DNA of 64,000 nucleotides, from contig JASFEM010000001.1 in NCBI GenBank assembly GCA_050124835.1, forward strand, positions 15,280 to 79,279, given 5' to 3'. The position numbers and the translations under genes were made by a program. Positions 20,453 to 50,684 of the stretch are shown in pieces (position 1 is the stretch's first letter; each line of letters opens with the position of its first letter). The notes beneath the pieces were generated by a model. The model ran no database searches, was not told the DNA's origin, and saw only the letters and a list, made by a program, of their open reading frames with translations. Source of the DNA: Syntrophobacterales bacterium (lineage in GTDB: Bacteria > Desulfobacterota > Syntrophobacteria > BM002).

Positions 20453-20465
20453 ATTAGTTTAAAAA

Positions 20466-30298: not shown

Positions 30299-30318
30299 TG
30301 AGAACTGGGGAGTTTCGC

Positions 30319-30609: not shown

Positions 30610-30839
30610 TTCCAGTATTGAACGAGGGTGACTATGGTGCATTTTTTTTATTGCACTGCATCTGTTTTTGTTCTTTTCTTTAACCTACCGTTTCTTCAAA
30701 TTAAATTCTTTTGCCACCCTAATTCTGCAGTATTTTACCTGCAGCCTATCCAGGCAATTTTGATCCTACCCTTCTTTCTCGTCTAGGTAATTATTAACAA
30801 TATTAATAGCTTATATTTTCGATCTCTTTCAGTTTCTTC

Positions 30840-30855
30840 TGGCACATCCCTTGCG
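30840..30855 (+). promoter_or_regulatory. Sigma-54 (-24/-12) promoter: TGGCAC-N5-TTGC.
   Basis: cTGGCACatcccTTGCg matches the consensus exactly, about 65 nt upstream of the receiver ORF. Confidence 0.65.
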
Positions 30856-30920
30856 TTCAGGGTGCGCCACACTCATTCATTAGCCAGAAAAATGTTTGGA
30901 AGGAAGATTCCACAAGAGCC

Positions 30921-31277
30921 GTGGCCAAATCACTCGTGTTGCATGAAGAATCTGATTGTCGTGAACTGATCAAGAGGGTCCTGCTAGAGAACGGCCATGA
31001 AGTGGTTGCTTTCGATGAGCCGGAAGAGGCCCTCGCCTGGACGCGTTCCAACCCCGTGGATCTGGCTATCGTTAGCTTGGAGTCGAGTGTAAGTCAGAAT
31101 GACGTTTGGCAGCAACTGAAACATTTTAACAAGAATCTCAAAATCCTTATCCTGACTAGATTCGCCGCTAAAGATTCGGCCAAGAGGGCGCTGGAAGAAG
31201 GCGCCGATGATTATCTCCTCAAGCCTATCGACATAGAGGCATTGGAAACCAAGGTAAAAAGCCTGAAAGAAGACTAA
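30921..31277 (+). CDS. Stand-alone CheY-like receiver with an atypical acidic pocket (DD replaced by HE). It has a GTG start.
   Basis: 118 aa. SLVLHEESD, VDLAIVS, ILILT and LLKP receiver landmarks. Paralog of the receiver at 39092-39457. Confidence 0.6.
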   Translation: MAKSLVLHEESDCRELIKRVLLENGHEVVAFDEPEEALAWTRSNPVDLAIVSLESSVSQNDVWQQLKHFNKNLKILILTRFAAKDSAKRALEEGADDYLLKPIDIEALETKVKSLKED

Positions 31278-31476
31278 TCTCGTTCGGTATTTGATGACTA
31301 GTACAGCTTGATATAGTTGTCTATTTAATCGTTGGTATCGTCTGCACTGAATTGGGTGCAATTTTAGCAATTAAATATTTGAAACTTAGTCAATGAAATC
31401 GAAAAAGTTTTATAGGAAGGAGGTGTCAGTCGTTCTTTTTTTGTTCCCATATTATAAAACAATGAAGGAGGAAACC

Positions 31477-33168
31477 GTGAAGAAAGTATCTTTCGTATTG
31501 ACCCTATTGATTGTCGGAATTGCCCTCATGGCTGCGGTTCCCAACAGCGCCCTGGCAGCAGCAAAAATCTCTGCTACCGAATATAAAGTTGGGGATACTG
31601 TCACTATAGAGGGAAGCATCGAGCCCGGCAAAGATCTCTACGTCACCGTAGTCTCGCATACCACGTTTGCACCTAAAGACACGGATGGTGTACACGAGGT
31701 GGCTCGGCTCAAGAAAGAGGCCCAAAAAAGAGGCTTCACCAATGAGACTAGGATACCTGTCTTTTATTACCTGCTAACCTCCAATCCCTCGCAATTTGGA
31801 AAGGTTACCAAGAAAAAATTTGGTGGGCCATCCTTCCTGCCGGGACTCTACAGCACAACCATGTTCAAGCTGGCAAAGTTTGACCAGCTTGATGCTGAGG
31901 CCAAGAATGTTTTGGGCCCCATCAAAAGCAAAGATGAGTGGAATTTCTTCAGATTCGCCCACGAATCTGCCTATGGCATCAACACCATTACCAAGGAAGG
32001 AGCCAAGAGAGGAAAAATCGTAATATTTGCCCGTAGTATCCTGGGAGATTACGGCACAAGCAAGAATTACTGGGACAAGGGCACGTCAGTTCAGTTGGAC
32101 AAGAGCACTGGAAAATTCACGGCCTCTTTCAAAACTTTCCGTCACACCCCGCCTAACAGCAAGTTTGACGTCTATGTGAACGGTGCCAAGGCCGGAACAT
32201 ATAACTTGCAGCCGAAAGGCTTCTGGCTGAGCAGGGGTTACCGTTACATGAACCCGATCATAATCACACTCGGCGCCATTGTTGTTGGTATTTTCTTCAC
32301 CATGATCGGCGCCGCCGGCGGCATGCTCATGGCGGCCTATCAGGTCATCGTTGTTCAGACCGCCGGTCCTATCGGCATTAACGCTGCCAACGTGCTGCGC
32401 TCATCGAACATAGCTTTGACCCTGTTCGCGCCACTGGGCGCTTTTTACCGGTACGCTGTGGTGGAGAAGCGGGTTGCCTGGCCTGTTGGTATCTCTTTTG
32501 GTGTGGGAATTTTGATCGGCTCCATCTGGTTGGGGAAATATGCAACTGCATACCTGCCCATGAAAAGCTATAAGGAGTGGTTGGCGGTTCTGGTTGTGAT
32601 CATGGGTATCAGAACCCTTTATGAGCTCACACCCAAGGTCATGGAAAAGAGGAAAGCCATCAAAGCGATGGTCAAAAAGTTTAATGAAGAGGTTGCACGG
32701 GCAAAAGCTGAAGGGCGCGCCGTTGAAATGGGTAAAATTGAAACGGTTAAGACCGGTCTTACTAGTTATCATTTCAAGTTTTGGGGTGAAGACTTCAGTA
32801 TTAACCCATTGCTCTTCGGTATCCTTGGCATAGTAATCGGGATAGTCTCTCGCTCGTTCGGTATCGGCGGCGGCTTCCTATTGGTGCCCGCCATGACCAC
32901 CCTGGGTGCTCTGCCCATGTACGTGGCCGTGCCTGTTGGGCTGATTGGTACTTCCTTCAGCAGCATCGGTTCCTTTATCGGCTACGCCATGAACAGGTAC
33001 TGGCCCGACTTGTGGATATTCATTGCCGTTATCATTGGTGGCTTTGTCGGGGGCATGCTTGGCAGTCGCTTCCAGAAGCTTTTCAGTGAGAGAGTCCTGA
33101 AGTGGGTGTTGGCAATTACCCTATTTTTCCTTTTCTTCCGCTTTTTCAAGATCGAAATCTGGATCTAG
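31477..33168 (+). CDS. TauE/SafE (DUF81) family membrane transporter fused to a roughly 270-aa N-terminal secreted domain of unknown function.
   Basis: An AAGGAGG RBS precedes the GTG start, giving MKKVSFVLTLLIVGIALMAAVPNSALA. An Lys-rich soluble domain is followed by two TauE-type 4-TM repeats with Gly-rich motifs (GAAGGMLM, GIGGGFLLVP). Confidence 0.7.
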   Translation: MKKVSFVLTLLIVGIALMAAVPNSALAAAKISATEYKVGDTVTIEGSIEPGKDLYVTVVSHTTFAPKDTDGVHEVARLKKEAQKRGFTNETRIPVFYYLLTSNPSQFGKVTKKKFGGPSFLPGLYSTTMFKLAKFDQLDAEAKNVLGPIKSKDEWNFFRFAHESAYGINTITKEGAKRGKIVIFARSILGDYGTSKNYWDKGTSVQLDKSTGKFTASFKTFRHTPPNSKFDVYVNGAKAGTYNLQPKGFWLSRGYRYMNPIIITLGAIVVGIFFTMIGAAGGMLMAAYQVIVVQTAGPIGINAANVLRSSNIALTLFAPLGAFYRYAVVEKRVAWPVGISFGVGILIGSIWLGKYATAYLPMKSYKEWLAVLVVIMGIRTLYELTPKVMEKRKAIKAMVKKFNEEVARAKAEGRAVEMGKIETVKTGLTSYHFKFWGEDFSINPLLFGILGIVIGIVSRSFGIGGGFLLVPAMTTLGALPMYVAVPVGLIGTSFSSIGSFIGYAMNRYWPDLWIFIAVIIGGFVGGMLGSRFQKLFSERVLKWVLAITLFFLFFRFFKIEIWI

Positions 33169-33184
33169 AGGACTGACAAAAAAA

Positions 33185-33218
33185 TGGGAAGGGGAAGGAG
33201 CAGTTTCCTTCCCCTTCC
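33185..33218. terminator. Perfect 14-bp-stem hairpin (GGGAAGGGGAAGGA...TCCTTCCCCTTCCC), possibly a bidirectional terminator.
   Basis: The inverted repeat is read directly. A-rich sequence lies on one side and T-rich sequence on the other. Confidence 0.5.
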
Positions 33219-33241
33219 CAAAAAAGAAAGAGTTAACTGAA

Positions 33242-33886
33242 ATGGAAGAATTTCTAGATACTTTGTGGTTTAGAATAGAAGTCTTAATTGATTATCTGAG
33301 AAGCTTTCTTGATTTCTTATTCGGCCCTCTCAATTCTTTGGGGCCGGCCGTTGCCATAGCAACGATGGCCTTGATCACGGTTGCAGTAACAAAGTACTTT
33401 ACCAAGAAGTTTAAAACCAAGCGATACAGAGAGTTAAAAAAGGAGTTTGCCCATTGGTACAATGTCCGTCAAGAGGCGACAAGATGTGAAGATTACGAAA
33501 AAGGAAAGCTTCTTGCCAAAAATATAGACAGTGCCAAGTTAAACAAGGTCTATTACGACTTCTTTCTTGAGGGGCTTTTGAACAATGTCTTAACGATGTA
33601 TTTACCCATTTTACTTGTTTTGGCTTATGTCAACGAGACTTACAACAGTGCTCATTTACTCAAGCTATTTGGGCGAGAATATGTATTCAGGCTCTGGAGC
33701 TTTAATGGAGACACGCTCGCTGTGGGAGCTGCTTTCTGGTTTGTCCTTTCCCTTTTGCTCATTTATCTGTGCTGGTTCATAGTAGAAAAGATATATGTAA
33801 AATTTGTAGTTGAAAAAAGAAACAACCGGGTACCGTATTGGGGGGCGAAGAGCCAGTTTTATGAGCAGTATCGTGACGCAGGCTAA
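33242..33886 (+). CDS. Hypothetical membrane protein (214 aa). TM segments flank a charged coiled-coil segment.
   Basis: Hydrophobic segments with a KKFKTKRYRELKKEF charged stretch. No confident family assignment. Confidence 0.5.
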   Translation: MEEFLDTLWFRIEVLIDYLRSFLDFLFGPLNSLGPAVAIATMALITVAVTKYFTKKFKTKRYRELKKEFAHWYNVRQEATRCEDYEKGKLLAKNIDSAKLNKVYYDFFLEGLLNNVLTMYLPILLVLAYVNETYNSAHLLKLFGREYVFRLWSFNGDTLAVGAAFWFVLSLLLIYLCWFIVEKIYVKFVVEKRNNRVPYWGAKSQFYEQYRDAG

Positions 33887-33895
33887 CCCGTCGCT

Positions 33896-34270
33896 CTAGA
33901 AGAGATGGTAACCAACAAGGAAGATTCCCAGCAATTCACCCAAACCTGCCGACAGGTGAAAGTGTCTTTCCTCAATATTTCTTGCCAGATGACCACAGAT
34001 TACCACAAAGCCGACAATTATGATTGCGACCATCGGCCAGCCCATTGCCAGCTCGAACCAAGACAATATCCATTTGGCAGTGAGGACGGCCACCGACCCC
34101 ATGGCGATACCCTGGATTAAGGGAACAAGGTATTTGGATATCCAGCTGAAACGCTCGAAAGGACTCACTAGAGGGGTGAGGATTATTCCACTGATCGCTC
34201 CAGCGACCAGTTTTCCATTTAGCAGTGCCAGGACCAATGCTACTCCATAACCTATGAATAGTCTCATCAC
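33896..34270 (-). CDS. Small hypothetical membrane protein (124 aa, roughly 4 TM).
   Basis: Strongly hydrophobic ORF on the opposite strand between plus-strand genes. Confidence 0.45.
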   Translation of the reverse strand: MMRLFIGYGVALVLALLNGKLVAGAISGIILTPLVSPFERFSWISKYLVPLIQGIAMGSVAVLTAKWILSWFELAMGWPMVAIIIVGFVVICGHLARNIEERHFHLSAGLGELLGIFLVGYHLF

Positions 34271-34366
34271 TATGTGCTCTGGTGGGATTACATTTTGACA
34301 ACCACAAAAATTCTATAGTATTTAGAAAGCTACGTCTAGTTTCCAATTTCGAGGAGGTCCTCCGTC

Positions 34367-34504
34367 ATGTGTAGCCGAGAGAAAACTCTCTGTATGTTTC
34401 CCGAAAAGTTGAAAGAGAAACCAAAAGCATGCACTCCGGAACAGATCAAGGAGTGCCATGGCGATGACAAGAACCATCCCTGCGTCTCTGAGAAGAAAAG
34501 CTAG
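34367..34504 (+). CDS. Small Cys-rich peptide (45 aa: MCSREKTLCMFPEKLKEKPKACTPEQIKECHGDDKNHPCVSEKKS).
   Basis: Perfect GAGGAGG RBS 6 nt upstream. The peptide has five Cys and sits 40 nt upstream of the TauE/SafE gene. It is missing from the ORF track because it is under 60 aa. Confidence 0.5.
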   Translation: MCSREKTLCMFPEKLKEKPKACTPEQIKECHGDDKNHPCVSEKKS

Positions 34505-34544
34505 CACAGTCTCCCGCTAAGAGGGTGAAATAGGTCCTACTCTC

Positions 34545-35297
34545 ATGTCCTGGTTCCTGCTCATGCCTATCATCTTTGCGAGCTCGCTTGTTCTCACCAT
34601 GGTGGGCCTAGGGGGTGGGCTCATCTTCTCCCCCCTATTTGTTCTCCTTTCCTTCCCGGTCTCCACGGCGGTCTCTGCCTCTCTTTTTCTGAACGGCATC
34701 GCTGCTCTGTCCGCGGCCATTACCTATTTTCGCAAGAAAATGATAGACGTGCAGGTTGGGGGGCCCCTCATCCTTGCCTCAGCCCTGGCCGCTCCTCTGG
34801 GTGCGCTTACCACCTCCAGGGTAAATATCAAGATCTTTACTGCCATTCTGGCAGGGGTGATCTTTCTGGCTTCTCTGCGCATGCTCTTCTCAGGCAAAAT
34901 AGAGGCTGCGACTGAGGAGGTCGGTACCAGGAGGAGGGTCATTGGCGGTGGTGCCATTGGCTTGGTTATTGGCTTCATGGCAGGGCTTCTAGGAATCGGT
35001 GGTGGGGTTTTCATTGTCCCCTTACTGATTTACATCTTGAGGGTACCCACAAAGATCGCGGCCGCCACCTCCATCTTTATCGTGGTCTTTTCCTCATGTA
35101 GCGGCTTCATTACCCATGCGTCTTTGGCTAGGGCCGACTGGAATTTCATCTTGGTGGCTGCCTGCTTCTCCTTTGCCGGCGGTCAGGTGGGCTCGCGAAT
35201 CATGGCAGAGAAGCTCAAAGGAAGGACCGTGCGGAGGCTCTTCGGAATTGTGCTCTTGGCTTTTGCCTTTAAGCTGATTCAGCGGGTGTGGTGGTAA
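34545..35297 (+). CDS. TauE/SafE (DUF81) family membrane transporter (sulfite/anion exporter family).
   Basis: 250 aa with duplicated 4-TM repeats carrying GLGGGLIFSPL and GIGGGVFIVPLL motifs. Confidence 0.85.
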   Translation: MSWFLLMPIIFASSLVLTMVGLGGGLIFSPLFVLLSFPVSTAVSASLFLNGIAALSAAITYFRKKMIDVQVGGPLILASALAAPLGALTTSRVNIKIFTAILAGVIFLASLRMLFSGKIEAATEEVGTRRRVIGGGAIGLVIGFMAGLLGIGGGVFIVPLLIYILRVPTKIAAATSIFIVVFSSCSGFITHASLARADWNFILVAACFSFAGGQVGSRIMAEKLKGRTVRRLFGIVLLAFAFKLIQRVWW

Positions 35298-35323
35298 GCT
35301 TGATTTACTGGCAGACCCTTTTC

Positions 35324-36457
35324 TCATTTGGAGGAGTTCAGATATTCGAAGTACTTCTGGACAAATTTTCCCGAAACCGCATCTGCCAGCGTGAAGACGA
35401 GTCTCCTTTCGACTGCATTAGACGTGGTGAGGGCGTGAAACATATTCTCAGAAGTCCTAGCCAGTACTGCATCCACTTGATCATAGTCGAGCCTGGCACC
35501 ATCTGCCGCCACCTCACCTTGATCAGCAAAGATTCGGACCTTACCCTCATGGGAAACAGGTAGGCCATAGAGCCTACACGCAGTCGGTCGTATGGGGTAT
35601 ACGGTACATCTGGAGTTAACATTAAGGGGGCACCTTATCTCTTCTTGAGCATATATCTCAGCGAACTTGTGCGAATCATCCTTAGTTTCGCTACCAGCCC
35701 GCAGCCTTTTCTCAAGATCTCCAATCTTTTTCGACACTCCCACCGCCCGTTGGATCGCCTCCTTGCGCTCAGTGCTGGTGAGGTGAAGGCTCATCTTGTG
35801 GTTTAGATAGGCCGCTTCTATAAACTGAAGATCAACCGGTCGGTAGCAGCACGCTTCACTTTCCAGACCGCAACTCAAGAGTCCCCCACCGGTGGTTTCG
35901 GCAGTTCTCTGAAACGCATGATCAATGAGATTTAAGAGAGTTTCATACTCTTGGAAGTACGGGTTCAAATCAGCGATGGGTCCGTTATCCAAAGAAGGTT
36001 GCCGGAATTCTAAGGTCCCAGCCTGCTTGTGGTATTTTCTCAACAATCGCCACTGAGAGAAACTACTGGAGACAGCCCGCGTTTCCTCGACCCTCTTTCT
36101 GGCCAGCTTCAAGCCATATCCTTTTCGAAGCAGATAGGCCATAACAAAGGTCGCTGTTCTGCCAATCCCAAAACGGCAATGGACGAGAACCTTCTTTCCC
36201 AGATAAAGGGCCTCGTCCAGCCAATCCAGCGCCTTTTCAAGCTCATCCATAGAAGGCACTTCATTATCGCAGGTGGGCAGATAGTACACTTCAAAGTCAT
36301 ACTCTTTTTGAATTTCATGAAGATTACAGAATTCTCCACATAGGTTCACAATAGCATTGATCCCTTGTTGTCTCATTGATTCCATTTCTCCATGAGACAA
36401 GGGAGCGTGGCCGAGACCAAGGCTCTCTGTCAACCAGGAAATGAGATAATCTGTCAT
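35324..36457 (-). CDS. Dual-specificity protein phosphatase domain fused to a YkgJ/UPF0153 (CxxCxxCC) putative Zn/Fe-chelating domain.
   Basis: DSP signature VLVHCRFGIGRTATF (HCxxGxxR). The C-terminus has CGLESEACCYRP...CPLNVNSRCTVYPIRPTACRLYG. Confidence 0.75.
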   Translation of the reverse strand: MTDYLISWLTESLGLGHAPLSHGEMESMRQQGINAIVNLCGEFCNLHEIQKEYDFEVYYLPTCDNEVPSMDELEKALDWLDEALYLGKKVLVHCRFGIGRTATFVMAYLLRKGYGLKLARKRVEETRAVSSSFSQWRLLRKYHKQAGTLEFRQPSLDNGPIADLNPYFQEYETLLNLIDHAFQRTAETTGGGLLSCGLESEACCYRPVDLQFIEAAYLNHKMSLHLTSTERKEAIQRAVGVSKKIGDLEKRLRAGSETKDDSHKFAEIYAQEEIRCPLNVNSRCTVYPIRPTACRLYGLPVSHEGKVRIFADQGEVAADGARLDYDQVDAVLARTSENMFHALTTSNAVERRLVFTLADAVSGKFVQKYFEYLNSSK

Positions 36458-36470
36458 TTTCTCTATACCC

Positions 36471-39038
36471 TCATCTTCGCTGCAATGGGCTGAAATCGTA
36501 GATGCCGTTCATAAATCTTTCAATCAGTTCTTCCACCTGCGAACCATCTTTCAGAGACATATCCAGCACTCTGGTGCATCCCAGCAGTTGTCCCAATACC
36601 TCTAGTTTGGCCTCCAAGGTTTGGCGGTCATTTCTGCTCAGTTGAGCATCAATCATATCGCCCTTTTTTTCAACTTTAAAGCCATGGTGTGACAAAATGC
36701 CTTCCAGGAATTTCAGCCTCAAGAACTTCGAGTACAAATCACCACCTCCACCGGCAAACCTTAGCATAATATAGTTTTCGTCAAGCTCATGGCCGCAAAG
36801 GGTATCGAGAACTACAAAATGAAAGCCAAAATGGATATTGAAGTTAAGGTAGTCATGGGAAAGAATTGCATAACTGCCCAAGAATTTGGATTCTGGCCGG
36901 ACAACACTATCACTGCTACTAATTCTGGCGAACTCCTGCCAATCGTAATGCCTCACATTAGGGTCCCAGTATATCCCAGGATTACTGAGGCCCTTCCACA
37001 GTGCTTTTAGTGGAATGTTGGTAATATCGTTGAGCTCAATTTCTTTCTTAGTGCGCGCTTCCTCAACAAGGCCACCACCAAGGTCGAGCAAATAAATTAT
37101 TATAGGTATCTCTGAAATCAGTCTTTTTGCTCCTGCGGCCCTTCTGCTTCCCTTGTCACCCAACAAAAACATCTGTTGGATGGATTTTTCGTGGGCAAAT
37201 CTGAGGATATCATGTAGGCTCTCACAGCCCTCGGGCGCAAAAGCCTCCGCGAGAGGATCTACCAGGTTTAGGGGCGAAATGTCGCTGAGAATCTTTTCCA
37301 TGCTCACCATGAAGGGGCTGTCTGTCAAAAGGGATCTCACGGAACATGCACTTCCCACTAGCTGCTCAACTATACCTTCGTATACAATCTTGGCTTCCGC
37401 GTAGACAGTGACCTCTTGTCCTGAAGTGAGGCTGTTCATGGCCACGCCTGTGTTTACCAATGTAGGAATGCCGAACTCTCTGGCCACCGAGGCGAAGTGC
37501 CCTGCCGTGCTGCCCACATCCGTTATCACTGCACTTATTTTCCCCACCACTTTGACCAAATCGGGGGACGGCACCTTGGCCACCACGACTGCCCCTTGCG
37601 GGAGGCTCTCTAAATCTTTCGATCTCTCTACTTTGTAAACTTCACCAGCAGCGATGCCTCCGCAAGCGCTATTCCCACCAGACAACAACACCCGGCTATC
37701 CACCTCAATATTGCTACAGTCAATTTTCTGCTGATCCTTATCTTCAATATGGAGAGGTCTGGACTGCAGAATGAAAAGCTTGCCCTCGTTGTCCATGCAC
37801 CATTCGATGTCTTGAGGGGTTCCTTGAAAGTCTTCCAGTTTGGTTGCCCATTCCATCAACTCGAGAGCAGACTGATCATCCAGGGCCAGATTCGCCGGCA
37901 AGTCATCCACCCCAGAGACTACTTGAATACCGCCTTTCTTAAGTGGAACCGCTTTCACGGGCTGAAATATCTCCTTGTCTCGCTCAAGCTGGTGGGGTGG
38001 TTCCCTCGTCACCCTGATAACGCTGGGGGTAACGCTGCCGTCTACAAGCAACTTCCCCAAACCCCATATGGAATGGATAGCCAATGTGCCACCACCAGTC
38101 TCCTCAGGATCGAGCGTATATATCACCCCGCTCACCCCGGCATCAATCATCTCCAAGACCAATACTGCCATGGGAGTCTCTCGGTCAGACAGCCCGTAGT
38201 TGATACGGTAATTGAGTGCCCGAGGTGAATACTTACTGGCAATGACTTCTTTATAAGCGTCAACGATTCTATTCGGTTGCACATTAAGAACCGACTCGTA
38301 CTGCCCAGCGAAAGAGGCCGCGCTGTCCTCGCCAACAGCACTACTGCGTACTGAGACCCGAAGTCTCCCAACTTGGTCCCCGCTGATCTCTTTGAGCGCA
38401 GTGCTGATTTCCTCTTCTATTGCCTTCGGGACTCGGGCTAATTGAATGAGTTTCACCAAATCCTCTGAGGTTTTCTCCACTGAACTGGCAGAATTGAGGT
38501 CGAGTTGAGCCAGCCGCTCATCAATCTTCTCGCGGAGGTTGTTTTCCTCTATTAAATAGTTAAATGAGTTGGCAGTAACGACAAAGCCTCTCGGCACCGG
38601 TAAGCCCAACCCTTTACGCACCGTGGCCAAATTGAACGCTTTACCGCCAACCAACAGGTGGCTGTCTGTACCCAGTTCATCAAGTGTTAGAGTGAAAGGC
38701 GGAGAGAAGTCATAGGAACTGGGGGCCAAAACTTGTTGTATCCTCTGGTCTATGGCGCGGAAGCAATCATCAAGTTTTGGATAGCAGGTGGGGCATATTT
38801 CGCTGAGCGACTTGACAACTTTCGTAACAGACGAGGACAGCTGCTTGCATTTGTGCTCTATTGCGGCAAAATCGACTTTGAGCTGCTCGTAGTAGATCTG
38901 CTCCAACTCGGCGATCAGTTCATGGCTTTTTTTGTCGTGCTCCAGCAAATTCCTGAATGCTTCATATTTCTCCTGAACCAGAAGGCCAGGAGCGAAGATT
39001 TTGTACGTCCAGTGTTTAAATAGATTAGCAACGTACAT
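36471..39038 (-). CDS. PEP-utilizing-enzyme-family dikinase (PpsA/PPDK-like): ATP-grasp domain, phospho-histidine swivelling domain, and a non-canonical 300-aa C-terminal domain.
   Basis: 855 aa. PPDK_N-like region (GGKAFNLATV...SVRSSAVGEDSAASFAGQ), then a mobile His domain (GGNSACGGIAAGEV...GSTAGHFASVAREFGIPTLVNTG). The C-terminal third lacks PEP/pyruvate TIM-barrel motifs. Confidence 0.8.
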   Translation of the reverse strand: MYVANLFKHWTYKIFAPGLLVQEKYEAFRNLLEHDKKSHELIAELEQIYYEQLKVDFAAIEHKCKQLSSSVTKVVKSLSEICPTCYPKLDDCFRAIDQRIQQVLAPSSYDFSPPFTLTLDELGTDSHLLVGGKAFNLATVRKGLGLPVPRGFVVTANSFNYLIEENNLREKIDERLAQLDLNSASSVEKTSEDLVKLIQLARVPKAIEEEISTALKEISGDQVGRLRVSVRSSAVGEDSAASFAGQYESVLNVQPNRIVDAYKEVIASKYSPRALNYRINYGLSDRETPMAVLVLEMIDAGVSGVIYTLDPEETGGGTLAIHSIWGLGKLLVDGSVTPSVIRVTREPPHQLERDKEIFQPVKAVPLKKGGIQVVSGVDDLPANLALDDQSALELMEWATKLEDFQGTPQDIEWCMDNEGKLFILQSRPLHIEDKDQQKIDCSNIEVDSRVLLSGGNSACGGIAAGEVYKVERSKDLESLPQGAVVVAKVPSPDLVKVVGKISAVITDVGSTAGHFASVAREFGIPTLVNTGVAMNSLTSGQEVTVYAEAKIVYEGIVEQLVGSACSVRSLLTDSPFMVSMEKILSDISPLNLVDPLAEAFAPEGCESLHDILRFAHEKSIQQMFLLGDKGSRRAAGAKRLISEIPIIIYLLDLGGGLVEEARTKKEIELNDITNIPLKALWKGLSNPGIYWDPNVRHYDWQEFARISSSDSVVRPESKFLGSYAILSHDYLNFNIHFGFHFVVLDTLCGHELDENYIMLRFAGGGGDLYSKFLRLKFLEGILSHHGFKVEKKGDMIDAQLSRNDRQTLEAKLEVLGQLLGCTRVLDMSLKDGSQVEELIERFMNGIYDFSPLQRR

Positions 39039-39091
39039 AATTTTCCTGATTGACCATAAGTCCTATGTTGTTAATTAAATTCAAAATTTGG

Positions 39092-39457
39092 TCAGTCTTG
39101 ACCTGCCAAGACTTTTTCCACTTTCTCTTCTATTTCATCAATGTCGATAGGCTTAATGAGGTATTCATTCGCTCCGAGAGTAAGCGCTTCCCGGGCTGAC
39201 TCTAGAGTAGGATAACCGGTGAGCATTATCACCTTCATGTGTGGGTCTATTTTCTTTAGCTCCTCGAGGACTTCAATCCCAAGAATCTTTTTTAGTCTAA
39301 TGTCAAGAATTGCCAGATCGACCTTATTTGTCCTGGCATGGCCAATTGCTTCCTCTTCCTCAGTAAAAGAAAGAACCTGATGGCCTTTCTCCACAAGAAT
39401 CCTTTGGAGCAGGATAACCGCATCCGGTTCATCATCGAGTACAAGAATGGTGGCCAT
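39092..39457 (-). CDS. Stand-alone CheY-like response regulator receiver.
   Basis: 121 aa with ILVLDDEPD, DLAILDIRL, IMLTGY and LIKP. Confidence 0.88.
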   Translation of the reverse strand: MATILVLDDEPDAVILLQRILVEKGHQVLSFTEEEEAIGHARTNKVDLAILDIRLKKILGIEVLEELKKIDPHMKVIMLTGYPTLESAREALTLGANEYLIKPIDIDEIEEKVEKVLAGQD

Positions 39458-39497
39458 CAGTTTTATTTCCCCCTTATTTTAGCCGCAATATGCCTGC

Positions 39498-40388
39498 TCA
39501 GGAAAGAGTCATCGGATCAAGCGGGTGGTGCTGGGAGGCCAGGGTGATCCTCAGACTCTCCCGCATGTGGCGAGGAAGCATGCTAGCAAAGGTCTTCATA
39601 ACCATTTCTGAGGAATTGTTGGTATCACTCACATGAGCGAAGATGACCTCTTGCAGATCTTCGCTATAAACTTGAGAGAGAACTATTACCGACTGCTCAT
39701 TGGAAAGATGACCAAATCGACTTCTGATTCGCTGTTTCACCGGCCAGGGATAGGGGCCATTTTTCAGCATTTCAACATCATGGTTTGCCTCCAGAACCAG
39801 GATGGAGCAGTTCTCGAGATGACGATGAACCAGGTTGGTAGCCGCTCCCAGATCAGTGCAAACTCCAACCTTTACCGAGCCATTGACCAGGGCAAACCCT
39901 ACCGGGTCGGCGGCATCGTGTGAAATGGCAAAGGGATGAATAGTGGTGTCTTCAACAGAGAAACTTTTTCCGGTTCTAAACTCAACTTTCTCCCCCAGTC
40001 GCCCCACCATCTCCGGGAGATGGGCATGGGTCAGCTGGTTTAGATAAACCGGCAGCTTATATCTCCTTGCAAGACTACCCAGGCCCCGGACGTGGTCCAG
40101 GTGTTCATGGGTCACGATGATCCCATCAAGATCTTTAGGGTTGACACCTACGGTGGCCAGACGGTGCTTTGTCTCCCGCCCACTGAGACCGGCATCTATG
40201 AGTAGACGAACCCTCTCGGTGGCAAGGTAGATGCTGTTACCCCGAGACCCACTAGCTAAGACGGACAATCTTATGCTCAACTTTGCCCCCTGATCACGCG
40301 CTATTCTCTTGCCTGGGCCAGGTTCAAATCCGAATATCGAAGCACGAATTTCGAGACAAATCCGAAATACGAATTCTCCAATGTTCAA
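39498..40388 (-). CDS. MBL-fold metallo-hydrolase (YycJ/WalJ- or PhnP-like).
   Basis: HxHxDH motif IIVTHEHLDHVRG. The real start is probably a downstream TTG giving MSIRLSVLASGSRGNS, because the 5' part of the ORF runs into the repeat element. Confidence 0.75.
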   Translation of the reverse strand: MNIGEFVFRICLEIRASIFGFEPGPGKRIARDQGAKLSIRLSVLASGSRGNSIYLATERVRLLIDAGLSGRETKHRLATVGVNPKDLDGIIVTHEHLDHVRGLGSLARRYKLPVYLNQLTHAHLPEMVGRLGEKVEFRTGKSFSVEDTTIHPFAISHDAADPVGFALVNGSVKVGVCTDLGAATNLVHRHLENCSILVLEANHDVEMLKNGPYPWPVKQRIRSRFGHLSNEQSVIVLSQVYSEDLQEVIFAHVSDTNNSSEMVMKTFASMLPRHMRESLRITLASQHHPLDPMTLS

Positions 40389-40490
40389 AACAAAAGATTA
40401 GATACATTTCAATCAAAATTTTGGAAATTTGAATTTGTTTGGGATTTCGTGCTTGGGATTTCGGATTTAGGCTCACCCATTGGGTGAGCT
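40316..40490. repeat. Second copy of the MITE/REP-like element seen at 846-1040. Inverted heptamer-word arms flank the shared core.
   Basis: The 21-mer is identical at 40372-40392. Arms aaatccgaatatcgaagcacgaatttcg and cgtgcttgggatttcggattt are reverse-complementary in word content. Confidence 0.6.
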
Positions 40491-40491
40491 G

Positions 40492-40983
40492 CTAACGTCC
40501 GGTATGCCCAAATCCTCCCTCGTTGCGCTCGGTCTCGTCTAGGTCTTGCCTGAGATCCCACTGTACCCGGTAGATTCTGCTTATGATCATCTGGGCAATC
40601 CGATCGCCCCTCTTAATGGTAAAGGGATTCTTCCCCAGGTTAATCAGCGCCACCCTGATTTCGCCCCGATAGTCACTATCTATCGTCCCTGGCGCATTTA
40701 TGACAGCAAGACCATGCGAAATTGCCAGCCCACTGCGTGCCCGGATCTGTCCTTCATAGCCCTCGGGTATGGCCACCGCCAACCCGGTTGAGATCAAGGC
40801 AGCTTCCTGGGGTTGGATGGTTAGGTCTTCATCTATGGCGGCAACAAGGTCCATTCCCGCTGCTCGGGAACTCATGTATTGAGGCAGGGGTAGGTCTTTG
40901 TCAGCCTCCCTCCGCAGACGACGGATGGGGATAGAGAGAATTTTGCTGCGGGTTCCTGTGCTCGCGTCTACCGGTTCGGTCAT
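40492..40983 (-). CDS. dut: dUTP diphosphatase.
   Basis: Dut motifs AGMDL, RSGLA, GTIDSDYRGE and GGFGHTG. Confidence 0.9.
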   Translation of the reverse strand: MTEPVDASTGTRSKILSIPIRRLRREADKDLPLPQYMSSRAAGMDLVAAIDEDLTIQPQEAALISTGLAVAIPEGYEGQIRARSGLAISHGLAVINAPGTIDSDYRGEIRVALINLGKNPFTIKRGDRIAQMIISRIYRVQWDLRQDLDETERNEGGFGHTGR

Positions 40984-41032
40984 GGCAGGTTTGTCGATTG
41001 CAGATTTCAGATTGTAGATTGAAGATTGTAGA

Positions 41033-42289
41033 TTACAGATCTAAGAATGTTTGGTCTAAGCCAAGCCCGTCCACCTGTCCCAAAAGCACGGAGGACATGA
41101 CCTCCGGCCGGAAGATTTCCTGAGCTAGAGCTTGAACATCTTCAGAGGTAACCTTCTCGAGGCCGGCCTCTATCTCCTCGTAAGTGACAAACCGGCCGAA
41201 GATCATCTCGTTTTTAGCCAGACGACTCATACGATTGTCAGTGTTTTCGGCGGCCAGGTAGATGCCCCCCTTGATATGTTCTTTGGCGGCACGAAGTTCG
41301 ACATCACTGATGGGCTTCTGTTTTAAGCTTCGGAGTTCATGCCGAATCACCTCAAGGGTTTCCTTAATATTGTCGGGTCGAACCGCGCCGTAAATTCCCA
41401 GCATCCCAGAATCAGTGTGTGAAGAAAGAAAGGAGTAAATTGAGTAGGCCAGCCCACGACGCTCCCGCACCTCCTGAAATAGTCTGGAACTCATACTGCC
41501 ACCCAGGATGACATTCAGGATACTGCAGCAATATCGCTCATCTTCTACCAGGGAGGCTCCCCGTGTTCCCAGGCAAAGGTGGATCTGTTCCAGATCTCTA
41601 GGATAAAGCTCTACGCCTGAGACAATGGTTGGAGGAGTGCGGTTGAGGTTGTGTGAATGCCTCTTGACGTTACGGAAAGCCGGCTCCACTAATTCTAGAA
41701 ATTCTTGGTGATCCACATTACCTGCTGCGCTCAAGACAATGCGATCTGGGTGGTAGCCGCGGTTCAGGTAGCCCAAAATAATCTCCCTGGTGAAGCTCTG
41801 TACCGTCTGGGCATTGCCAAAGATCGGCCGGGCCAAGGGATTCCCGTCCCAAAAAGCCTGGTTGAAAAGCACGTGGACGTATTCGTCGGGGGTATCTTCC
41901 ACCATGTTGATTTCCTGGAGGATAACCTCACGCTCGCGTTCCACTTCCTGATGATCAAATACCGAGTGGAGAAAAATATCAGCTAGTATATCCACGACAA
42001 GGGGCAGATGAGCATCCAAGACCTTGGCATGAAAGCAGGTGTTTTCTTTGCTGGTAAAGGCATTGGACATGCCCCCCACAGCATCCAGTTGCTTGGCTAT
42101 TTCCAGAGCACTTCTCTTCTTCGTGCCTTTGAAGAGCATGTGCTCGATGAAGTGGGTCAAGCCGCTCTCGCTTTCGGCTTCATCACGGGAGCCCACATTC
42201 AGCCAGATACCCATGGAGACCGAATGAAGATGGGGAATCCTCTCAGTCACCACCCGCATCCCATTGTCCAAGATGGTTCTTTTATACAA
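41033..42289 (-). CDS. M16-family zinc peptidase (pitrilysin-like).
   Basis: Inverted zinc motif HFIEHMLF and a downstream Glu. Confidence 0.88.
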   Translation of the reverse strand: MYKRTILDNGMRVVTERIPHLHSVSMGIWLNVGSRDEAESESGLTHFIEHMLFKGTKKRSALEIAKQLDAVGGMSNAFTSKENTCFHAKVLDAHLPLVVDILADIFLHSVFDHQEVEREREVILQEINMVEDTPDEYVHVLFNQAFWDGNPLARPIFGNAQTVQSFTREIILGYLNRGYHPDRIVLSAAGNVDHQEFLELVEPAFRNVKRHSHNLNRTPPTIVSGVELYPRDLEQIHLCLGTRGASLVEDERYCCSILNVILGGSMSSRLFQEVRERRGLAYSIYSFLSSHTDSGMLGIYGAVRPDNIKETLEVIRHELRSLKQKPISDVELRAAKEHIKGGIYLAAENTDNRMSRLAKNEMIFGRFVTYEEIEAGLEKVTSEDVQALAQEIFRPEVMSSVLLGQVDGLGLDQTFLDL

Positions 42290-42494
42290 CCCGTGTCTCC
42301 CTCTCTAACTCTGTCCGTTGTCAGTTGTCAGTGGTCCGTGGTACCGTCGCTCACCTTATTCGCGACCGGCTCAAGGCGCAGGGCGCAAGGCATAAGGCAA
42401 ATCCATAGAATCCATTTGCTGCTCTATGCTTCGTGTTCTATGCTCTGCGCTTTTTTCGCAACGGACGACTGACCAGACCCAATTGGGCATTTTA

Positions 42495-44588
42495 CTAGTT
42501 GCTAATGGTTTCTCCTAAAGCGGCCTTTCGACTCAAGCGAATGCGTCCATCCCTATCGATTTCCAGTACCTTGACCAGCACCTCATCCCCTTCATTGAGA
42601 ATATCGCGAACTCTTTGCACTCTCTTATGGTCCAGCTGCGAAATGTGAATCAAGCCATCGGTGCCTGGAAGGATCTCCACAAAAGCGCCAAAATCTGTTA
42701 TTTTGCGCACCTTGCCAAGATAGAGACCACCGACCTCCGCTTCTGCGGTGAGCTGTTTGATCATCTCCACCGCCTTCTGGCAGCCGGCAAGATCTGGACT
42801 CATGATGACCACCTTACCATCGTCATCCACGTCGATCTTGGTACTGGTTTCGGCAATAATTTGGCGGATGACCTTGCCACCCGGACCGATAACGTCACGA
42901 ATTTTGTCGGGATGTATTTCAATGCTCACAACTCGAGGCGCATAGGGTGAGAGTTCTTTACGGGGCGCCGGGATGGCGTGGTTCATCTTCTCGAGGATAC
43001 TCAACCGTCCCTCTCTGGCCTGAAAAAGAGCCTGGCGCATCACCTCACGAGGTACACCGGCCACCTTTATATCCATCTGCAAAGCGACAACGCCCTCAGA
43101 ACTTCCGGTAACCTTGAAATCCATATCTCCCAGGTAGTCCTCGTCGCCAAGGATGTCGCTAAGGATGGCTACCTGGTCACCTTCCATGATCAAACCCATG
43201 GCGATCCCCGCAATTGAATTCTTTAAAGGTACCGCCGCATCCATTAAAGCCAGAGAACTGGCACATACCGAGGCCATGGAAGAGGAACCGTTGGATTCCA
43301 ACACTTCGGCCACCACTCGCACGGTGTAGGGGAAATCTTCATGGGAGGGCATCACTGCTTTAATGGTCCTTTCAGCCAAGGCCCCATGGCCGATTTCCCG
43401 CCGACTAGGTCCACGAAGGAACCTGGCCTCCCCCACACAATAGGGAGGAAAGTTGTAGTGGAGCATAAAGGTCTTCCACTCATCACCTTCCAACGCCTCG
43501 ATCTTCTGTTCGTCAGAAGAGGATCCTAAAGTGACCACGGAGAGCACCTGGGTCTCCCCGCGGGTAAAAAGTCCAGAGCCATGGGTGCGCGGCAGCCGGC
43601 CAACCTGGCAATCAATTGTCCGAATGTCGGCGAGATTTCGTTTATCGATCCTAGTTTTCCGCGTGAGGATCATCTGGCGCACAAATTTCTTTTCGAGATT
43701 TTGCAGAATCTCCCGCACTTCCCCCTCTCGCTCCGCAAAATCCGGACCGAGTTTTTCCATCACCTCTTGGATCACCGCATTCCGCAGGAGATAGCGGGCT
43801 TCTTTTTCGGCAGTGGTGTTGGCTTCCTCAATTTTCCCCTGGGAAAGCTCTGCCACCCGAGCGGCCAGGGCTTCGTCTTCTTGTGGAGGCTCGTATTGTC
43901 TTTTATTTTTACCGCAGCGAGACTTGAGCGTCTCTTGCATATCCAAAATGGGCTGTATGGCATCGTGGGCTCTATAGAGAGCCTCCAATAAATCATCCTC
44001 ACTCACAAACTGAGCGCTACCCTCCACCATGACGATACCCTGGCGGTTGCCAGCCACAACCACATTGAAGTCGCTCATTTCTAACTGGTCTGCAGTGGGA
44101 TTGATTACCATTTGTCCATTGGCTCGACCAACCCGAACCGCTCCGATGGGTCCTTGAAACGGAATATCCGAGATTTCGAGTGCGGCAGATGCCCCCACCA
44201 TTGCCACCGTATCCGGATCGTTATCAGGATCCGCAGAGAGCACGGTGGCAATCACCTGGATTTCCTTTCTATATTTCTTGGGAAACAGGGGTCGGATTGG
44301 GCGGTCGATAAGGCGCGATGTCAAAGTTTCCCGTTCGCTGGGACGTCCGATCTCGCGGCGGAAAAAACCGCCAGGGATCCTGCCCACTGCAAAGCCCTTT
44401 TCCATGTAGTCCACGCTGAGCGGCAGGAAATCAATACCCTCGCGGATCCTTTCCTCACCAACCGCGGTTACAAGAACCACCGTTTCTCCGTAACTGGCGA
44501 GTACAGCACCGCTGGCCTGCTTGGCCATCTCCCCAGTTTCGAGTCTGAATTGCCGACCGCCTAACTCTATTTCAATATTTTCTTTCAT
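42495..44588 (-). CDS. pnp: Polyribonucleotide nucleotidyltransferase (PNPase).
   Basis: 697 aa with two RNase PH domains, KH, and S1 at the C-terminus. Confidence 0.95.
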
Positions 44589-44785
44589 AATCTTTCCCTT
44601 TTTCTACTCCAACTCTGGCATGCGCAAATGATAAGAGTCGCTCATGAACAGGTTTGACATGTGTTGATAAATTTGAGATCAATTTCTAATCTCCGGTATA
44701 CAATGCTGCTAAAACTTGCACGTTTTCCTCTGAAGCCTCCCAAAAAACCATTGGCCGACTCCTGCCGGATCCTCGCTGCCGTTCG

Positions 44786-45055
44786 CTAACGGCGAAGACC
44801 CAATCTCTCTAGGACCTCCCGGTATCTACCCACATCCTTTCGCTTGAGGTAATCCAACAGCCGCCGGCGTTGGCCCACCAGTTTTAGCAACCCCCGCCGC
44901 GAATGATGGTCCTTCTTGTGAGTCTTAAAGTGTTCAGTGAGATAGGTAATTCGCTCGCTGAGCAAAGCTATCTGCACTTCTGGAGAGCCGGTATCGGTCT
45001 CGTGTGTTTTGAAATTCTCAATGACTTCTTTTTTCCTCTCAGCAGTTAGTGCCAC
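44786..45055 (-). CDS. rpsO: 30S ribosomal protein S15.
   Basis: [21 protein letters not shown] motif. A GTG start is preferred because GAGGAGG lies 8 nt upstream and it gives the canonical 89-aa length. The track ORF extends to 45079. Confidence 0.9.
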
Positions 45056-45120
45056 CGTAAGTCCCTCCTCGTAATTCAAACCGGAACCTCGTCCCGCTTA
45101 ATAAAAAAAGTACCTCCATA

Positions 45121-47443: not shown

Positions 47444-47490
47444 GATTTCCTTGATTCTCCATACTAGATCCTCGATCCTGGATCGAGTGT

Positions 47491-47778: not shown

Positions 47779-47975
47779 CTTTCCGCCTCGGCGAAGCTCC
47801 CAATCATTGACATAGATCGAAAAGGTGGAAGGATATTTGAGATTTTAGATTTGAGAATGCAGATTTAAGCTTTAAGAGGCTAGAACCAAACAGTTAAGGA
47901 ACGTATGCAACCTCAATCTGCGATCTGAAATCTTAAATTATATTTCTTTGTGGCTACTTGGTTTGGCCGCCCTAT

Positions 47976-50621: not shown

Positions 50622-50684
50622 GCAACCCCCCGATTGCTATGAATCTACTTCCCATTGTTAATCAAAGCTGCACTCCGACGTGCT

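Follow-up and report, generated by a model that had tools for sequence, protein, structure and literature searches.

The window, the whole 64,000-nucleotide stretch of Syntrophobacterales DNA analysed here, contains four ORFs on the minus strand, at 35324-36457 (377 aa), 36471-39038 (855 aa), 39092-39457 (121 aa) and 39498-40388 (296 aa). They are co-directional and stand 13, 53 and 40 bp apart, in agreement with the original prediction, which read them as an operon of a dual-specificity phosphatase (DSP), a PpsA-like dikinase, a CheY-like receiver and an MBL-fold hydrolase. These domain calls are upheld for all four genes by Pfam matches and motifs; the start of the MBL gene is not, 40280 being likelier than 40388. 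The genes, the domains of the dikinase and the convergent neighbours are as follows.

35324..36457, minus strand: dual-specificity (CX5R) phosphatase with a six-Cys YkgJ-like domain, 377 aa (DSPc, 5e-16)
36471..39038, minus strand: dikinase, 855 aa, with N-terminal helical bundle, ATP-grasp, phospho-His swivel and novel C-terminal domain (ORF, Pfam and AF2 model)
38694..39038, minus strand: dikinase residues 1-115, N-terminal helical bundle, family-specific, without a Pfam match
37704..38693, minus strand: dikinase residues 116-445, ATP-grasp nucleotide-binding domain
37359..37703, minus strand: dikinase residues 446-560, swivelling phospho-His domain with GSTAGH motif and catalytic His514 (PEP-utilizers, 7e-15)
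36471..37358, minus strand: dikinase residues 561-855, novel alpha/beta domain in place of the PEP/pyruvate TIM barrel, presumed acceptor site
39092..39457, minus strand: single-domain receiver, 121 aa, with a complete set of canonical phospho-acceptor residues (Response_reg, 4.5e-27)
39498..40280 (probable), minus strand: YycJ-like MBL-fold hydrolase, about 260 aa (Lactamase_B_2; homologue lengths)
31393-33168, plus strand: convergent TauE-family protein, 591 aa (Pfam TauE)
33242-33886, plus strand: convergent membrane protein, 214 aa
34545-35297, plus strand: convergent TauE protein, 250 aa (Pfam TauE)

The MBL gene matches Lactamase_B_2 (7.6e-20, Pfam) and encodes the motif THEHLDH (HxHxDH). 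Its homologues are 257-260 aa in length and cover 100% of a query begun at TTG 40280; to judge from these lengths the gene probably spans 39498-40280, with 211 bp left after dut. The product is a generic YycJ-like MBL-fold protein. Some sources label it PhnP or phosphoribosyl cyclic phosphodiesterase, but it scores 23.6 bits against PhnP (TIGR03307), for which the cut-off is 272, and the earlier statement that all four products handle phosphoryl groups is not borne out for it. Among 82 dikinase loci from other genomes, the MBL gene is found in only three (L001, L005 and L006), all from the closest Syntrophobacterales relatives, and loci L088 and L089 contain the string pnp-M16-dut-MBL without any dikinase. 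The gene was therefore rejected as a member of the module, and the proposal of a conserved four-gene unit falls with it; it is a lineage-specific bystander that closes a housekeeping pnp-M16-dut string. In the window it is probably co-transcribed with the module genes.

A scan of positions 30000-46000 with Rfam matched no riboswitch or other RNA element, and a scan for sigma-70 promoters and terminators gave counts not above those of shuffled sequence. A 206-aa 'conserved ORF' on the opposite strand inside the dikinase gene (neighbourhood cluster 10) is an antisense shadow ORF. Searches with the PADLOC anti-phage models gave no match for the dikinase or the DSP, and only trivial fold-level matches for the receiver and the MBL protein.

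The dikinase family and its C-terminal domain

Pfam identifies PPDK_N at residues 129-440 (8e-81) and PEP-utilizers at residues 480-547 of the 855-aa protein. The catalytic motif GSTAGH, with His514, is readable in the sequence, and this His is invariant in an alignment of divergent family members (115/115). The AF2 model of the protein has a pLDDT of 83. A total of 2392 homologues were found, and the family is present in at least 562 species-level genomes and forms about 1400 sequence clusters at 50% identity.

As in PpsA and pyruvate phosphate dikinase, the ATP-grasp domain comes first and the swivelling phospho-His domain, which contains the conserved His, comes after it, and the same AMP-forming dikinase chemistry is presumed. 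The similarity to PpsA stops at about residue 568; NCBIfam PpsA matches end at residue 563 and score 313 bits against a cut-off of 739.75 (TIGR01418) and 321 against 598 (NF005057). No Pfam match was found to PEP-utilizers_C, the C-terminal PEP/pyruvate-binding TIM barrel, and the structural model shows no such barrel at the C-terminus. The place of the barrel is taken by an unrelated alpha/beta domain, and there is an extra helical bundle at the N-terminus. The original prediction held that a standard PpsA C-terminal domain would speak against it; the domain was looked for and is absent, and the view that this is not a bona fide PpsA is borne out. The database label 'pyruvate, water dikinase' or PEP synthase is thus wrong for this family. 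The mislabelling touches all of the genomes and clusters counted above, so that sulfate reducers and syntrophs may be credited, in metabolic reconstructions, with a gluconeogenic step which the gene cannot perform.

Residues 561-855 form a conserved alpha/beta domain for which no relative was found in Pfam or PDB. Its His, Arg, Asp and Glu residues are at least 93% conserved in 115 sequences with 33-49% identity to the window protein, and the AF2 model and the alignment place an invariant His616-Glu617 pair on a long helix. AlphaFold modelling of the isolated domain gave a pLDDT of 70, moderate confidence only. The domain is presumed to be a family-specific acceptor-binding site. The His616-Glu617 helix and weak Foldseek matches to DesK had prompted the idea of a degenerate histidine-kinase core; this was rejected when hhalign gave a probability of 0.6% for a match with the DHp-CA core of the kinases encoded nearby. 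An HPt-like role for the N-terminal bundle was also rejected, since its His39 is invariant in close homologues but only 47% conserved family-wide. About 16 of the best 150 family representatives are longer, at 1023-1084 aa, and two of the four members of this class scanned with Pfam (P0199 and also the truncated P0209) have a C-terminal ConA-like/LamG lectin-type domain. These matches are weak (E 1e-5 to 4e-4) and are confined to a different clade from the window dikinase.

Rifampin phosphotransferase, HpeHI, PigC/RedH and phenylphosphate synthase are PpsA-like kinases that act on non-pyruvate substrates, and this group provides the closest structural match for the ATP-grasp domain as well as a precedent for transfer from phospho-His to a hydroxyl other than that of enolpyruvate. 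Its members differ from the window protein in the acceptor-binding domain and in domain order, and in none of them is there a CX5R phosphatase dedicated to the enzyme or a link to two-component genes. The window dikinase also falls outside the rifampin phosphotransferase family (NF041857), which is defined by an ATP-grasp domain, a substrate-binding domain, a C-terminal swivel His and a score above the cut-off. VadK (Rv1127c) is shorter than the window dikinase and is not known to have a comparable C-terminal domain. It is alike in being a PPDK-derived protein of Mycobacterium tuberculosis that has lost pyruvate/PEP function and serves as a regulatory, His-autophosphorylating kinase (PMC13400623). 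Hydroxyl acceptors and regulatory use have precedents within the superfamily in rifampin phosphotransferase (PMC4844700), HpeHI (PMC12167813) and VadK (PMC13400623).

Partner genes in other genomes

The window phosphatase scores 59 bits against DSPc (cut-off 33.5) and has both the P-loop, HCRFGIGRT, and the general-acid Asp64 by which dual-specificity (CX5R) phosphatases are recognized. Across 63 DSP sequences HCRxGxGRT and Asp64 are at least 95% conserved, with the Cys, the Arg and the general-acid Asp all kept. The match to CxxCxxCC (PF03692, YkgJ) is sub-threshold (19.3 bits, cut-off 23), and the first Cys motif is CX6CC, not CxxCxxCC; nonetheless, six cysteines (Cys196, 203, 204, 276, 284 and 294) are 86-100% conserved in the same 63 sequences.

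Of the 82 dikinase loci surveyed in other genomes, 80 could be scored for DSP adjacency; the counts of receiver, kinase, binding-protein and TauE neighbours refer to the 41 loci with both flanks. In 77 of the 80 scorable loci the dikinase gene is followed immediately, on the same strand, by a DSP gene, which is far beyond chance. Carriers of the pair belong to Desulfobacterales, Desulfobulbales, Syntrophobacterales, Desulfarculaceae, SAR324 and Nitrospiraceae, and the pairing noted originally is therefore conserved across orders and phyla. Most of the adjacent DSP partners (64/77) have the six-Cys YkgJ-like domain; the remaining 13 are bare 150-aa DSP domains without a Cys-rich module. Two proteins, P0149 and P0202, are dikinase-DSP fusions. 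In P0268 an LMW-PTP/ArsC-like domain is fused to the dikinase, and at locus L085 a separate LMWPc gene abuts the dikinase gene, so that the partner slot is filled by two unrelated CX5R folds. Because of the adjacency and the fusions, the CX5R phosphatase is regarded as a near-obligate partner of the dikinase. Apart from the phosphatase, no gene was universally linked to the dikinase among the surveyed loci, and the conserved unit is a two-gene kinase/eraser pair rather than a four-gene operon.

For partners of the LMW-PTP type, thioredoxin-coupled arsenate reductases are the best-scoring models, with matches below the cut-offs, and the proteins contain the relay motif LCSDAxRxC. In addition, the L085 partner has a fused DF-family thioredoxin-like domain (83 bits, cut-off 70). 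Together with the metal/redox-type Cys domain of the long DSP, these ArsC-like proteins hint at a reductive, not purely hydrolytic, chemistry.

The receiver (Response_reg, 94.9 bits) has all of D8, D9, D52, T80 and K102, characteristic of CheY-like receivers. Its orthologues are found near the pair in 28 of the 41 loci, in more than one phylum, and its standing as a recurrent neighbour is upheld. It is frequent but not universal: roughly one locus in three has no receiver within 8 kb, and the LMW-PTP-linked clade lacks it. Histidine kinases are neighbours in 28 of the 41 loci and periplasmic binding proteins in 17. No histidine kinase gene adjoins the receiver in the window; elsewhere, 38 of 54 orthologous receivers adjoin one, and in Desulfacinum hydrothermale the order DIK-SBP-HK-RR-DSP is found on one strand; locus L092 reads SBP-HK-RR-DSP. 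Since the orthologues usually lie beside their own sensor kinase and a periplasmic binding protein, the receiver is probably phosphorylated conventionally.

Orthologues of the 591-aa TauE protein (TauE591) are near the dikinase in 13 of the 41 loci, in several families. The convergent TauE and membrane protein genes recur with the module elsewhere and may therefore be functionally linked to it; at L088, where the dikinase is absent, a TauE gene and an unannotated 193-aa gene adjoin the MBL gene. Recurrent neighbours include TauE anion-permease-like proteins and a cytoplasmic PhsA-like molybdopterin oxidoreductase with Fe-S and GltD-like subunits, sulfur and molybdenum neighbours being present in only about a quarter of loci. 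MsrAB (29108-30298) was rejected as a linked gene, as it is near the dikinase in only two loci. Glycogen or other polysaccharide genes were not recurrent in the 82 neighbourhoods, and no catabolic genes were conserved near the dikinase in those surveyed.

Possible function and alternative explanations

The searched literature contains no description of a dikinase-DSP-receiver system, which agrees with the original view that no described bacterial system is known to combine the four parts. The gene pair is widespread in bacteria and looks like a new reversible phosphorylation switch. There is, in our estimate, an even chance that it operates as a signal-controlled, reversible kinase/phosphatase cycle on an acceptor. 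The dikinase would take the beta-phosphate of ATP onto His514 of the swivel domain, yielding AMP and Pi, in the manner of the PpsA/PPDK/rifampin-phosphotransferase superfamily. It could then deliver the phosphoryl group to an acceptor, most likely a hydroxyl on a protein or other macromolecule, held by the family-specific C-terminal domain that has replaced the pyruvate/PEP barrel. The adjacent or fused CX5R phosphatase would strip this phosphate, making the cycle reversible. In most genomes the companions of the pair appear to be a single-domain receiver, an sCache/PAS histidine kinase and a periplasmic binding protein; most likely, therefore, the receiver is phosphorylated conventionally on Asp52 and serves as an allosteric input, tipping the balance between kinase and phosphatase.

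Without regulation, a kinase accompanied by its own eraser could amount to a futile cycle, and this counts against the switch as an explanation. Further points against it are the loci that lack a receiver, the hints of reductive chemistry from the ArsC-like partners and from the Cys domain of the long DSP, the moderate confidence of the C-terminal model, and the lack of any universally linked gene other than the phosphatase. So too does locus L092, in the order SBP-HK-RR-DSP, where the DSP is found with two-component genes and the dikinase is absent within 15 kb.

The original prediction also envisaged a non-canonical phosphorelay. The receiver's Asp52 could take up the phosphoryl group from phospho-His514 or from another His, in the C-terminal domain; or the flow could be reversed, from the phosphorylated receiver to a dikinase His, for which Spo0F to Spo0B is a model. 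Single-domain receivers are often relay intermediates, and such a role is consistent with a canonical receiver that, in 28 of 41 loci and in more than one phylum, adjoins the pair or lies only a short way off; the invariant His616-Glu617 on a long helix of the C-terminal domain fits it too. However, 38 of 54 receivers have a histidine kinase of their own next door, and the receiver is lacking in roughly one locus in three and in the LMW-PTP clade. The hhalign probability of 0.6% against the DHp-CA core and the 47% conservation of His39 also argue against a relay, and to our knowledge CX5R phosphatases do not act on acyl-phosphate receivers. With the dikinase possessing an invariant, active-site-like C-terminal domain of its own, the receiver is weakened as its phospho-acceptor, and a phosphorelay is unlikely. 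A further reading, which we consider decidedly unlikely, is that the dikinase phosphorylates an oxyanion or oxidized group, on the model of sulfiredoxin or of arsenate activation, and that the CX5R protein is an ArsC-like thiol reductase whose accessory cysteines relay electrons. This would suit the arsenate reductase-like LMW-PTP partners with their LCSDAxRxC motif and the thioredoxin-like fusion at L085, the six-Cys domain of 64 of the 77 adjacent DSPs, and the recurrent TauE and PhsA-like neighbours. It fits poorly with the 13 of 77 partners that are bare 150-aa DSPs without a Cys module, with retention of the general-acid Asp typical of hydrolytic DSPs, with ArsC matches under their cut-offs and with sulfur or molybdenum neighbours in only about a quarter of loci; in addition, we know of no DSP-fold reductase.

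Plant GWD with SEX4 is likewise a pairing of a dikinase with a DSP, and GWD with SEX4/LSF2 or laforin forms a write/erase cycle of reversible glucan phosphorylation. The parallel drawn originally holds as a resemblance, and phosphorylation of a storage or envelope polysaccharide by the dikinase, with dephosphorylation by the DSP, would match it; the lectin-type domain in two of the four longer proteins scanned points the same way. Beyond this the parallel is not supported. GWD has CBM45 domains and its ATP-grasp domain last, and SEX4 and laforin carry CBMs, whereas the window system is bacterial, has a different dikinase domain order and two-component genes nearby, and shows no carbohydrate-binding module in the dikinase or the DSP (Pfam) and no recurrent glycogen or polysaccharide genes in the 82 neighbourhoods. 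The lectin-like matches are weak, such domains also mediate protein contacts, and the two-component linkage is left without explanation; a glycan cycle is very unlikely. We find it still harder to credit a kinase for small molecules, catabolic or detoxifying and comparable to rifampin phosphotransferase, HpeHI or phenylphosphate synthase, to which the phosphatase and receiver are only loosely related neighbours. Against it stand a swivel domain that is internal here but C-terminal in Rph, NCBIfam scores that are all far under the cut-offs, and an absence of conserved catabolic genes nearby; moreover, a near-obligate, even fused, phosphatase would reverse a catabolic or detoxifying phosphorylation. 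Finally, an ordinary PEP synthase (PpsA) for gluconeogenesis, neighbouring unrelated genes by chance, is suggested by the best NCBIfam names (phosphoenolpyruvate synthase) and by the source databases. Scores of 313-321 bits against cut-offs of 598-740, with matches ending at residue 563, and DSP adjacency in 77 of 80 loci make this almost certainly wrong, and where the defining C-terminal domain is concerned it is refuted already, by the lack of PEP-utilizers_C and of a modelled TIM barrel.

On the preferred reading of a regulated kinase/phosphatase cycle, the family offers a testable entry to a phosphorylation system with a conserved writer, a new acceptor domain, a near-obligate eraser of two folds and a two-component input. 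The identity of the acceptor would reveal what this sensory input controls in organisms that dominate anoxic sediments, and could add a kinase class. It is conceivable, if doubtful, that the dikinase is the founding member of a class of AMP-forming protein or macromolecule kinases that use a swivelling phospho-His to place on a hydroxyl a phosphate erased by a dedicated CX5R phosphatase, and that the pair provides the output of a two-component system in sulfate-reducing and syntrophic bacteria. If true, neither Hanks, BY and HPrK kinases nor histidine kinases would be related to this kinase/phosphatase switch. In a stranger variant, the CX5R partner would be a thiol reductase whose substrate is an oxyanion activated by the dikinase. 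The BY-kinase/LMW-PTP (Wzc/Wzb) and Hanks kinase/phosphatase pairs are similar in that a kinase and its cognate cysteine phosphatase are encoded adjacently as a switch, but their kinase folds and mechanisms are wholly unlike those of the window dikinase.

The four genes and the dikinase

The predicted co-directional, four-gene layout on the minus strand is present, with gaps of 13, 53 and 40 bp between ORFs, and Pfam matched the domains expected in all four products; for the Cys-rich CxxCxxCC part of the phosphatase protein the match is below the Pfam threshold.

35324–36457, minus strand: dual-specificity phosphatase (DSP), 377 aa; Pfam DSPc, 5e-16
36471–39038, minus strand: dikinase (DIK), 855 aa; PPDK_N at residues 129–440 (8e-81), PEP-utilizers at 480–547 (7e-15)
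39092–39457, minus strand: receiver (RR), 121 aa; Response_reg, 4.5e-27
39498–40388, minus strand: MBL-fold hydrolase (MBL) as called mechanically, 296 aa; Lactamase_B_2 and Lactamase_B

The GSTAGH motif of the dikinase swivel domain, with His514, is intact, as are the phosphatase catalytic motif (HCRFGIGRT plus Asp64), the canonical receiver residues D8, D9, D52, T80 and K102, and the MBL THEHLDH motif. The dikinase and the DSP each have 100% identical counterparts labelled as a Syntrophobacterales MAG.

The dikinase is not a bona fide PpsA, in line with the original prediction. It scores 313 against TIGR01418 (cut-off 740), 321 against NF005057 (cut-off 598) and 200 against the Rph model (cut-off 999); all NCBIfam matches are far under their cut-offs and stop by residue 563. 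When 75 homologues were aligned into a profile, its matches to PpsA, PPDK and enzyme I chains of solved structure went no further than position 568. An AlphaFold model built on the same alignment (pLDDT 83, pTM 0.73) divides into an N-terminal helical bundle (helices 18–103), the ATP-grasp and swivel domains, and a C-terminal alpha/beta domain (residues 561–855), in which antiparallel strands at about 721–800 are flanked by helices and do not form a (beta/alpha)8 barrel. The pyruvate/PEP barrel has been lost and replaced by a new conserved domain. Modelled alone, this domain reached pLDDT 70; Foldseek returned no match at E <= 1e-3 (TM <= 0.21), and a profile search of PDB sequences none below E 0.5.

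In 115 family members, 33–49% identical to the window dikinase, conservation in the C-terminal domain is 97% or higher at each of H609, D610, R613, H616, E617, W691, Y730, H740, R774 and D826, and 93–96% at S722, D745 and N755 (numbers count Met1; those of alignment A1 are shifted by -1). With its His, Arg and acidic side chains, the set resembles a phosphoryl-transfer site. When representative sequences were searched exhaustively, the domain profile matched 1399 clusters at 50% identity; in full-length proteins among the matches listed, the ATP-grasp and His domains precede this domain. Scanning a single genome per species placed it in at least 562 of them. Of the 80 best loci listed, nearly all are from Thermodesulfobacteriota, including the cultured Desulfacinum hydrothermale DSM 13146, with one each from Desulfovibrionaceae, SAR324, Nitrospiraceae and an Anaerolineales-labelled contig. 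This is a large family that is amenable to experiment and consistently carries the wrong annotation; the function that we infer is set out below.

The phosphatase partner

ORFs were called in 82 non-redundant dikinase loci and matched to the window proteins. The dikinase–DSP gene order proved to be conserved: in 77 of the 80 scorable loci the next gene downstream, in the same orientation, encodes a DSP. The partner is a long form of about 350 aa, DSP plus Cys-rich domain, in 64 of the 77, with the six cysteines of the latter 86–100% conserved, and a bare DSP domain of about 150 aa in 13. In P0149 (1252 aa) and P0202 (1205 aa) dikinase and DSP are fused, the Cys-rich tail being included in P0149. 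P0268 (1248 aa) has an LMW-PTP-fold domain fused N-terminal to the dikinase, and in locus L085 a separate LMWPc gene (234 aa) abuts a 1061-aa dikinase. The partner slot is therefore occupied by two unrelated CX5R folds, adjacent or fused, and this is the strongest evidence that a cysteine phosphatase and the dikinase act in the same process. A CX5R phosphatase, with catalytic Cys, Arg and Asp intact, is the obligate partner of the dikinase.

Thioredoxin-coupled arsenate reductases are the best match for the LMW-PTP-type partners, at scores below the cut-offs, and these partners retain the LCSDAxRxC relay motif; in L085 the protein has an additional N-terminal DF-family thioredoxin-like domain. 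In one clade the dikinase is extended at its C-terminus by about 200 aa; this tail weakly matches ConA-like/LamG lectin domains in P0199 and P0209, and by eye that of P0268 is similar. In both long-tail cases examined (P0199, L085 1493–4678; P0268) the partner is the ArsC-like LMW-PTP, with no DSP.

Three DSP homologues (44–51% identity) served as starting points for a reciprocal check. One locus has RR-DIK-DSP (L091); in another (L090) the receiver gene converges on the DSP gene of a DIK-DSP pair. In the third (L092, 3127–8155), genes for a periplasmic binding protein (SBP), an sCache/PAS histidine kinase (HK), a receiver and a long DSP are in the order SBP-HK-RR-DSP, and the dikinase is absent from the 15-kb locus; thus the phosphatase can remain linked to two-component genes without the kinase nearby.

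A proposed cycle and its alternatives

We put at about even the chance that the module is a receiver-tuned dikinase/phosphatase cycle. The dikinase would autophosphorylate on His514 from ATP, yielding AMP and Pi, and would pass the phosphate to an acceptor held in the C-terminal domain. The phosphatase would undo this transfer, and the receiver, phosphorylated by its own kinase, would shift the balance through protein contact. The architectural basis is ATP-grasp plus phospho-His with an invariant His; the dikinase–DSP pair is often linked to a conventional two-component system, and the phosphatase is the sole gene universally linked to the dikinase. Within the superfamily, rifampin phosphotransferase (PMC4844700) and HpeHI (PMC12167813) are alcoholic/phenolic precedents for passing phospho-His to a hydroxyl, and VadK is a PPDK derivative re-used as a regulatory kinase (PMC13400623). 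If the acceptor proves a protein residue, the system would be a new kinase class.

A direct His–Asp relay between dikinase and receiver is unlikely; the receiver, expected with the dikinase–DSP pair, is indeed a frequent neighbour (28 of the 41 loci having both flanks) and is not universal. The ArsC-like and Cys-rich partners suggest an activate-then-reduce pathway, which we consider slightly less probable still. ConA-like tails in one clade suggest a GWD/SEX4-like glycan cycle, whereas the window system differs from GWD/SEX4 in lacking a CBM; such a cycle seems doubtful. A small-molecule kinase of the Rph type, from which the domain order differs, is more doubtful again, and an ordinary PpsA, given the missing barrel and sub-threshold scores, is very improbable. 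The receiver-tuned cycle would work like known kinase/phosphatase switches, with dikinase chemistry. As predicted, no dikinase–DSP or dikinase–receiver module was found in the full-text literature searched; PADLOC defence models gave no match beyond trivial fold-level hits for the receiver and MBL, and Rfam none at 30000–46000. We classify the system as a new dikinase subfamily with a new putative acceptor domain and a dedicated eraser.

The MBL gene and recurrent neighbours

MBL homologues are 257–260 aa and cover 100% of a query beginning at TTG 40280, which is preceded by GGGGG. Their length indicates that the mechanical ORF is too long, and the true gene is probably 39498–40280 (minus strand), a 211-bp AT-rich spacer then separating it from dut. 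Its proposed membership of the module did not hold: among the 82 dikinase loci it is confined to the closest Syntrophobacterales relatives (L005, L006, L001). In L001 (CP070692.1, 83% identical) RR-DIK-DSP is preceded by a truncated MBL gene of 144 aa (7110–7544), and dut no longer lies before that gene; this arrangement fits a rearrangement breakpoint, and also fits a module that can do without MBL. MBL closes a conserved rimP-nusA-infB-truB-rpsO-pnp-M16-dut-MBL array (39498–52991). Loci found from MBL homologues have truB-rpsO-pnp-M16-dut-MBL without a dikinase (L088, L089) or pnp-M16-MBL-DIK-DSP (L087), contexts that identify MBL as the last member of a string of housekeeping genes. In the window lineage the dikinase module lies directly downstream, and co-transcription with MBL is possible; scans for sigma-70 promoters and for terminators gave no more hits than shuffled sequence did.

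Also near the pair in the 41 loci are orthologues of an sCache_3_2/PAS histidine kinase (28), a Phosphonate-bd-type SBP (17), a sigma-54 response regulator (17), a TauE-family protein resembling the 591-aa window protein TauE591 (13), and a cytoplasmic molybdopterin oxidoreductase (11) with its Fe-S (10) and GltD-like (9) partners. A co-directional histidine kinase adjoins 38 of 54 orthologous receiver genes, and Desulfacinum has DIK-SBP-HK-RR-DSP on one strand. In the window no histidine kinase is adjacent to the receiver (39092–39457); orthologues of other recurrent neighbours lie 12–25 kb off, at 13797–24074 (58–67% identity; sensor kinase 47%).

13797–15968, minus strand: GltD-like NAD(P)H flavoprotein, 723 aa
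15972–16574, minus strand: DmsB-like Fe-S subunit
16631–18817, minus strand: PhsA-like cytoplasmic molybdopterin oxidoreductase
18960–18974, minus strand: sigma-54 site, one mismatch
20587–24074, plus strand: 165-aa membrane protein, PAS histidine kinase (541 aa) and sigma-54 response regulator (467 aa)

Orthologues of the molybdopterin cluster (13797–18974; 59–69% identity) adjoin the dikinase–DSP pair in about a quarter of the other genomes, and the regulator trio also recurs beside it. The trio may drive the sigma-54 promoters at 18960 and 30840. The latter, TGGCACATCCCTTGC (30840–30854, plus strand), is the sole perfect -24/-12 consensus in the window. About 70 nt further downstream is an ORF of 118 aa (30921–31277, plus strand), a second single-domain receiver. 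Replacements at its acceptor Asp and in its acidic pocket (IVSLES, HEESD) make it a likely pseudo-receiver; L006 and L008 have orthologues. Its gene is the first of the TauE591-U214-TauE250 string (591, 214 and 250 aa), which converges on the DSP gene.

Between U214 and TauE250, a minus-strand ORF of 124 aa (33896–34270) matches no Pfam family and has a strong L008 orthologue (178 bits); it may be a genuine small membrane protein gene. U214 itself (33242–33886, plus strand) has no Pfam or NCBIfam match in the window protein. In L087 its homologue has a weak match to EMC3_TMCO1 (insertase-like), and U214 accompanies the long TauE protein in several lineages.
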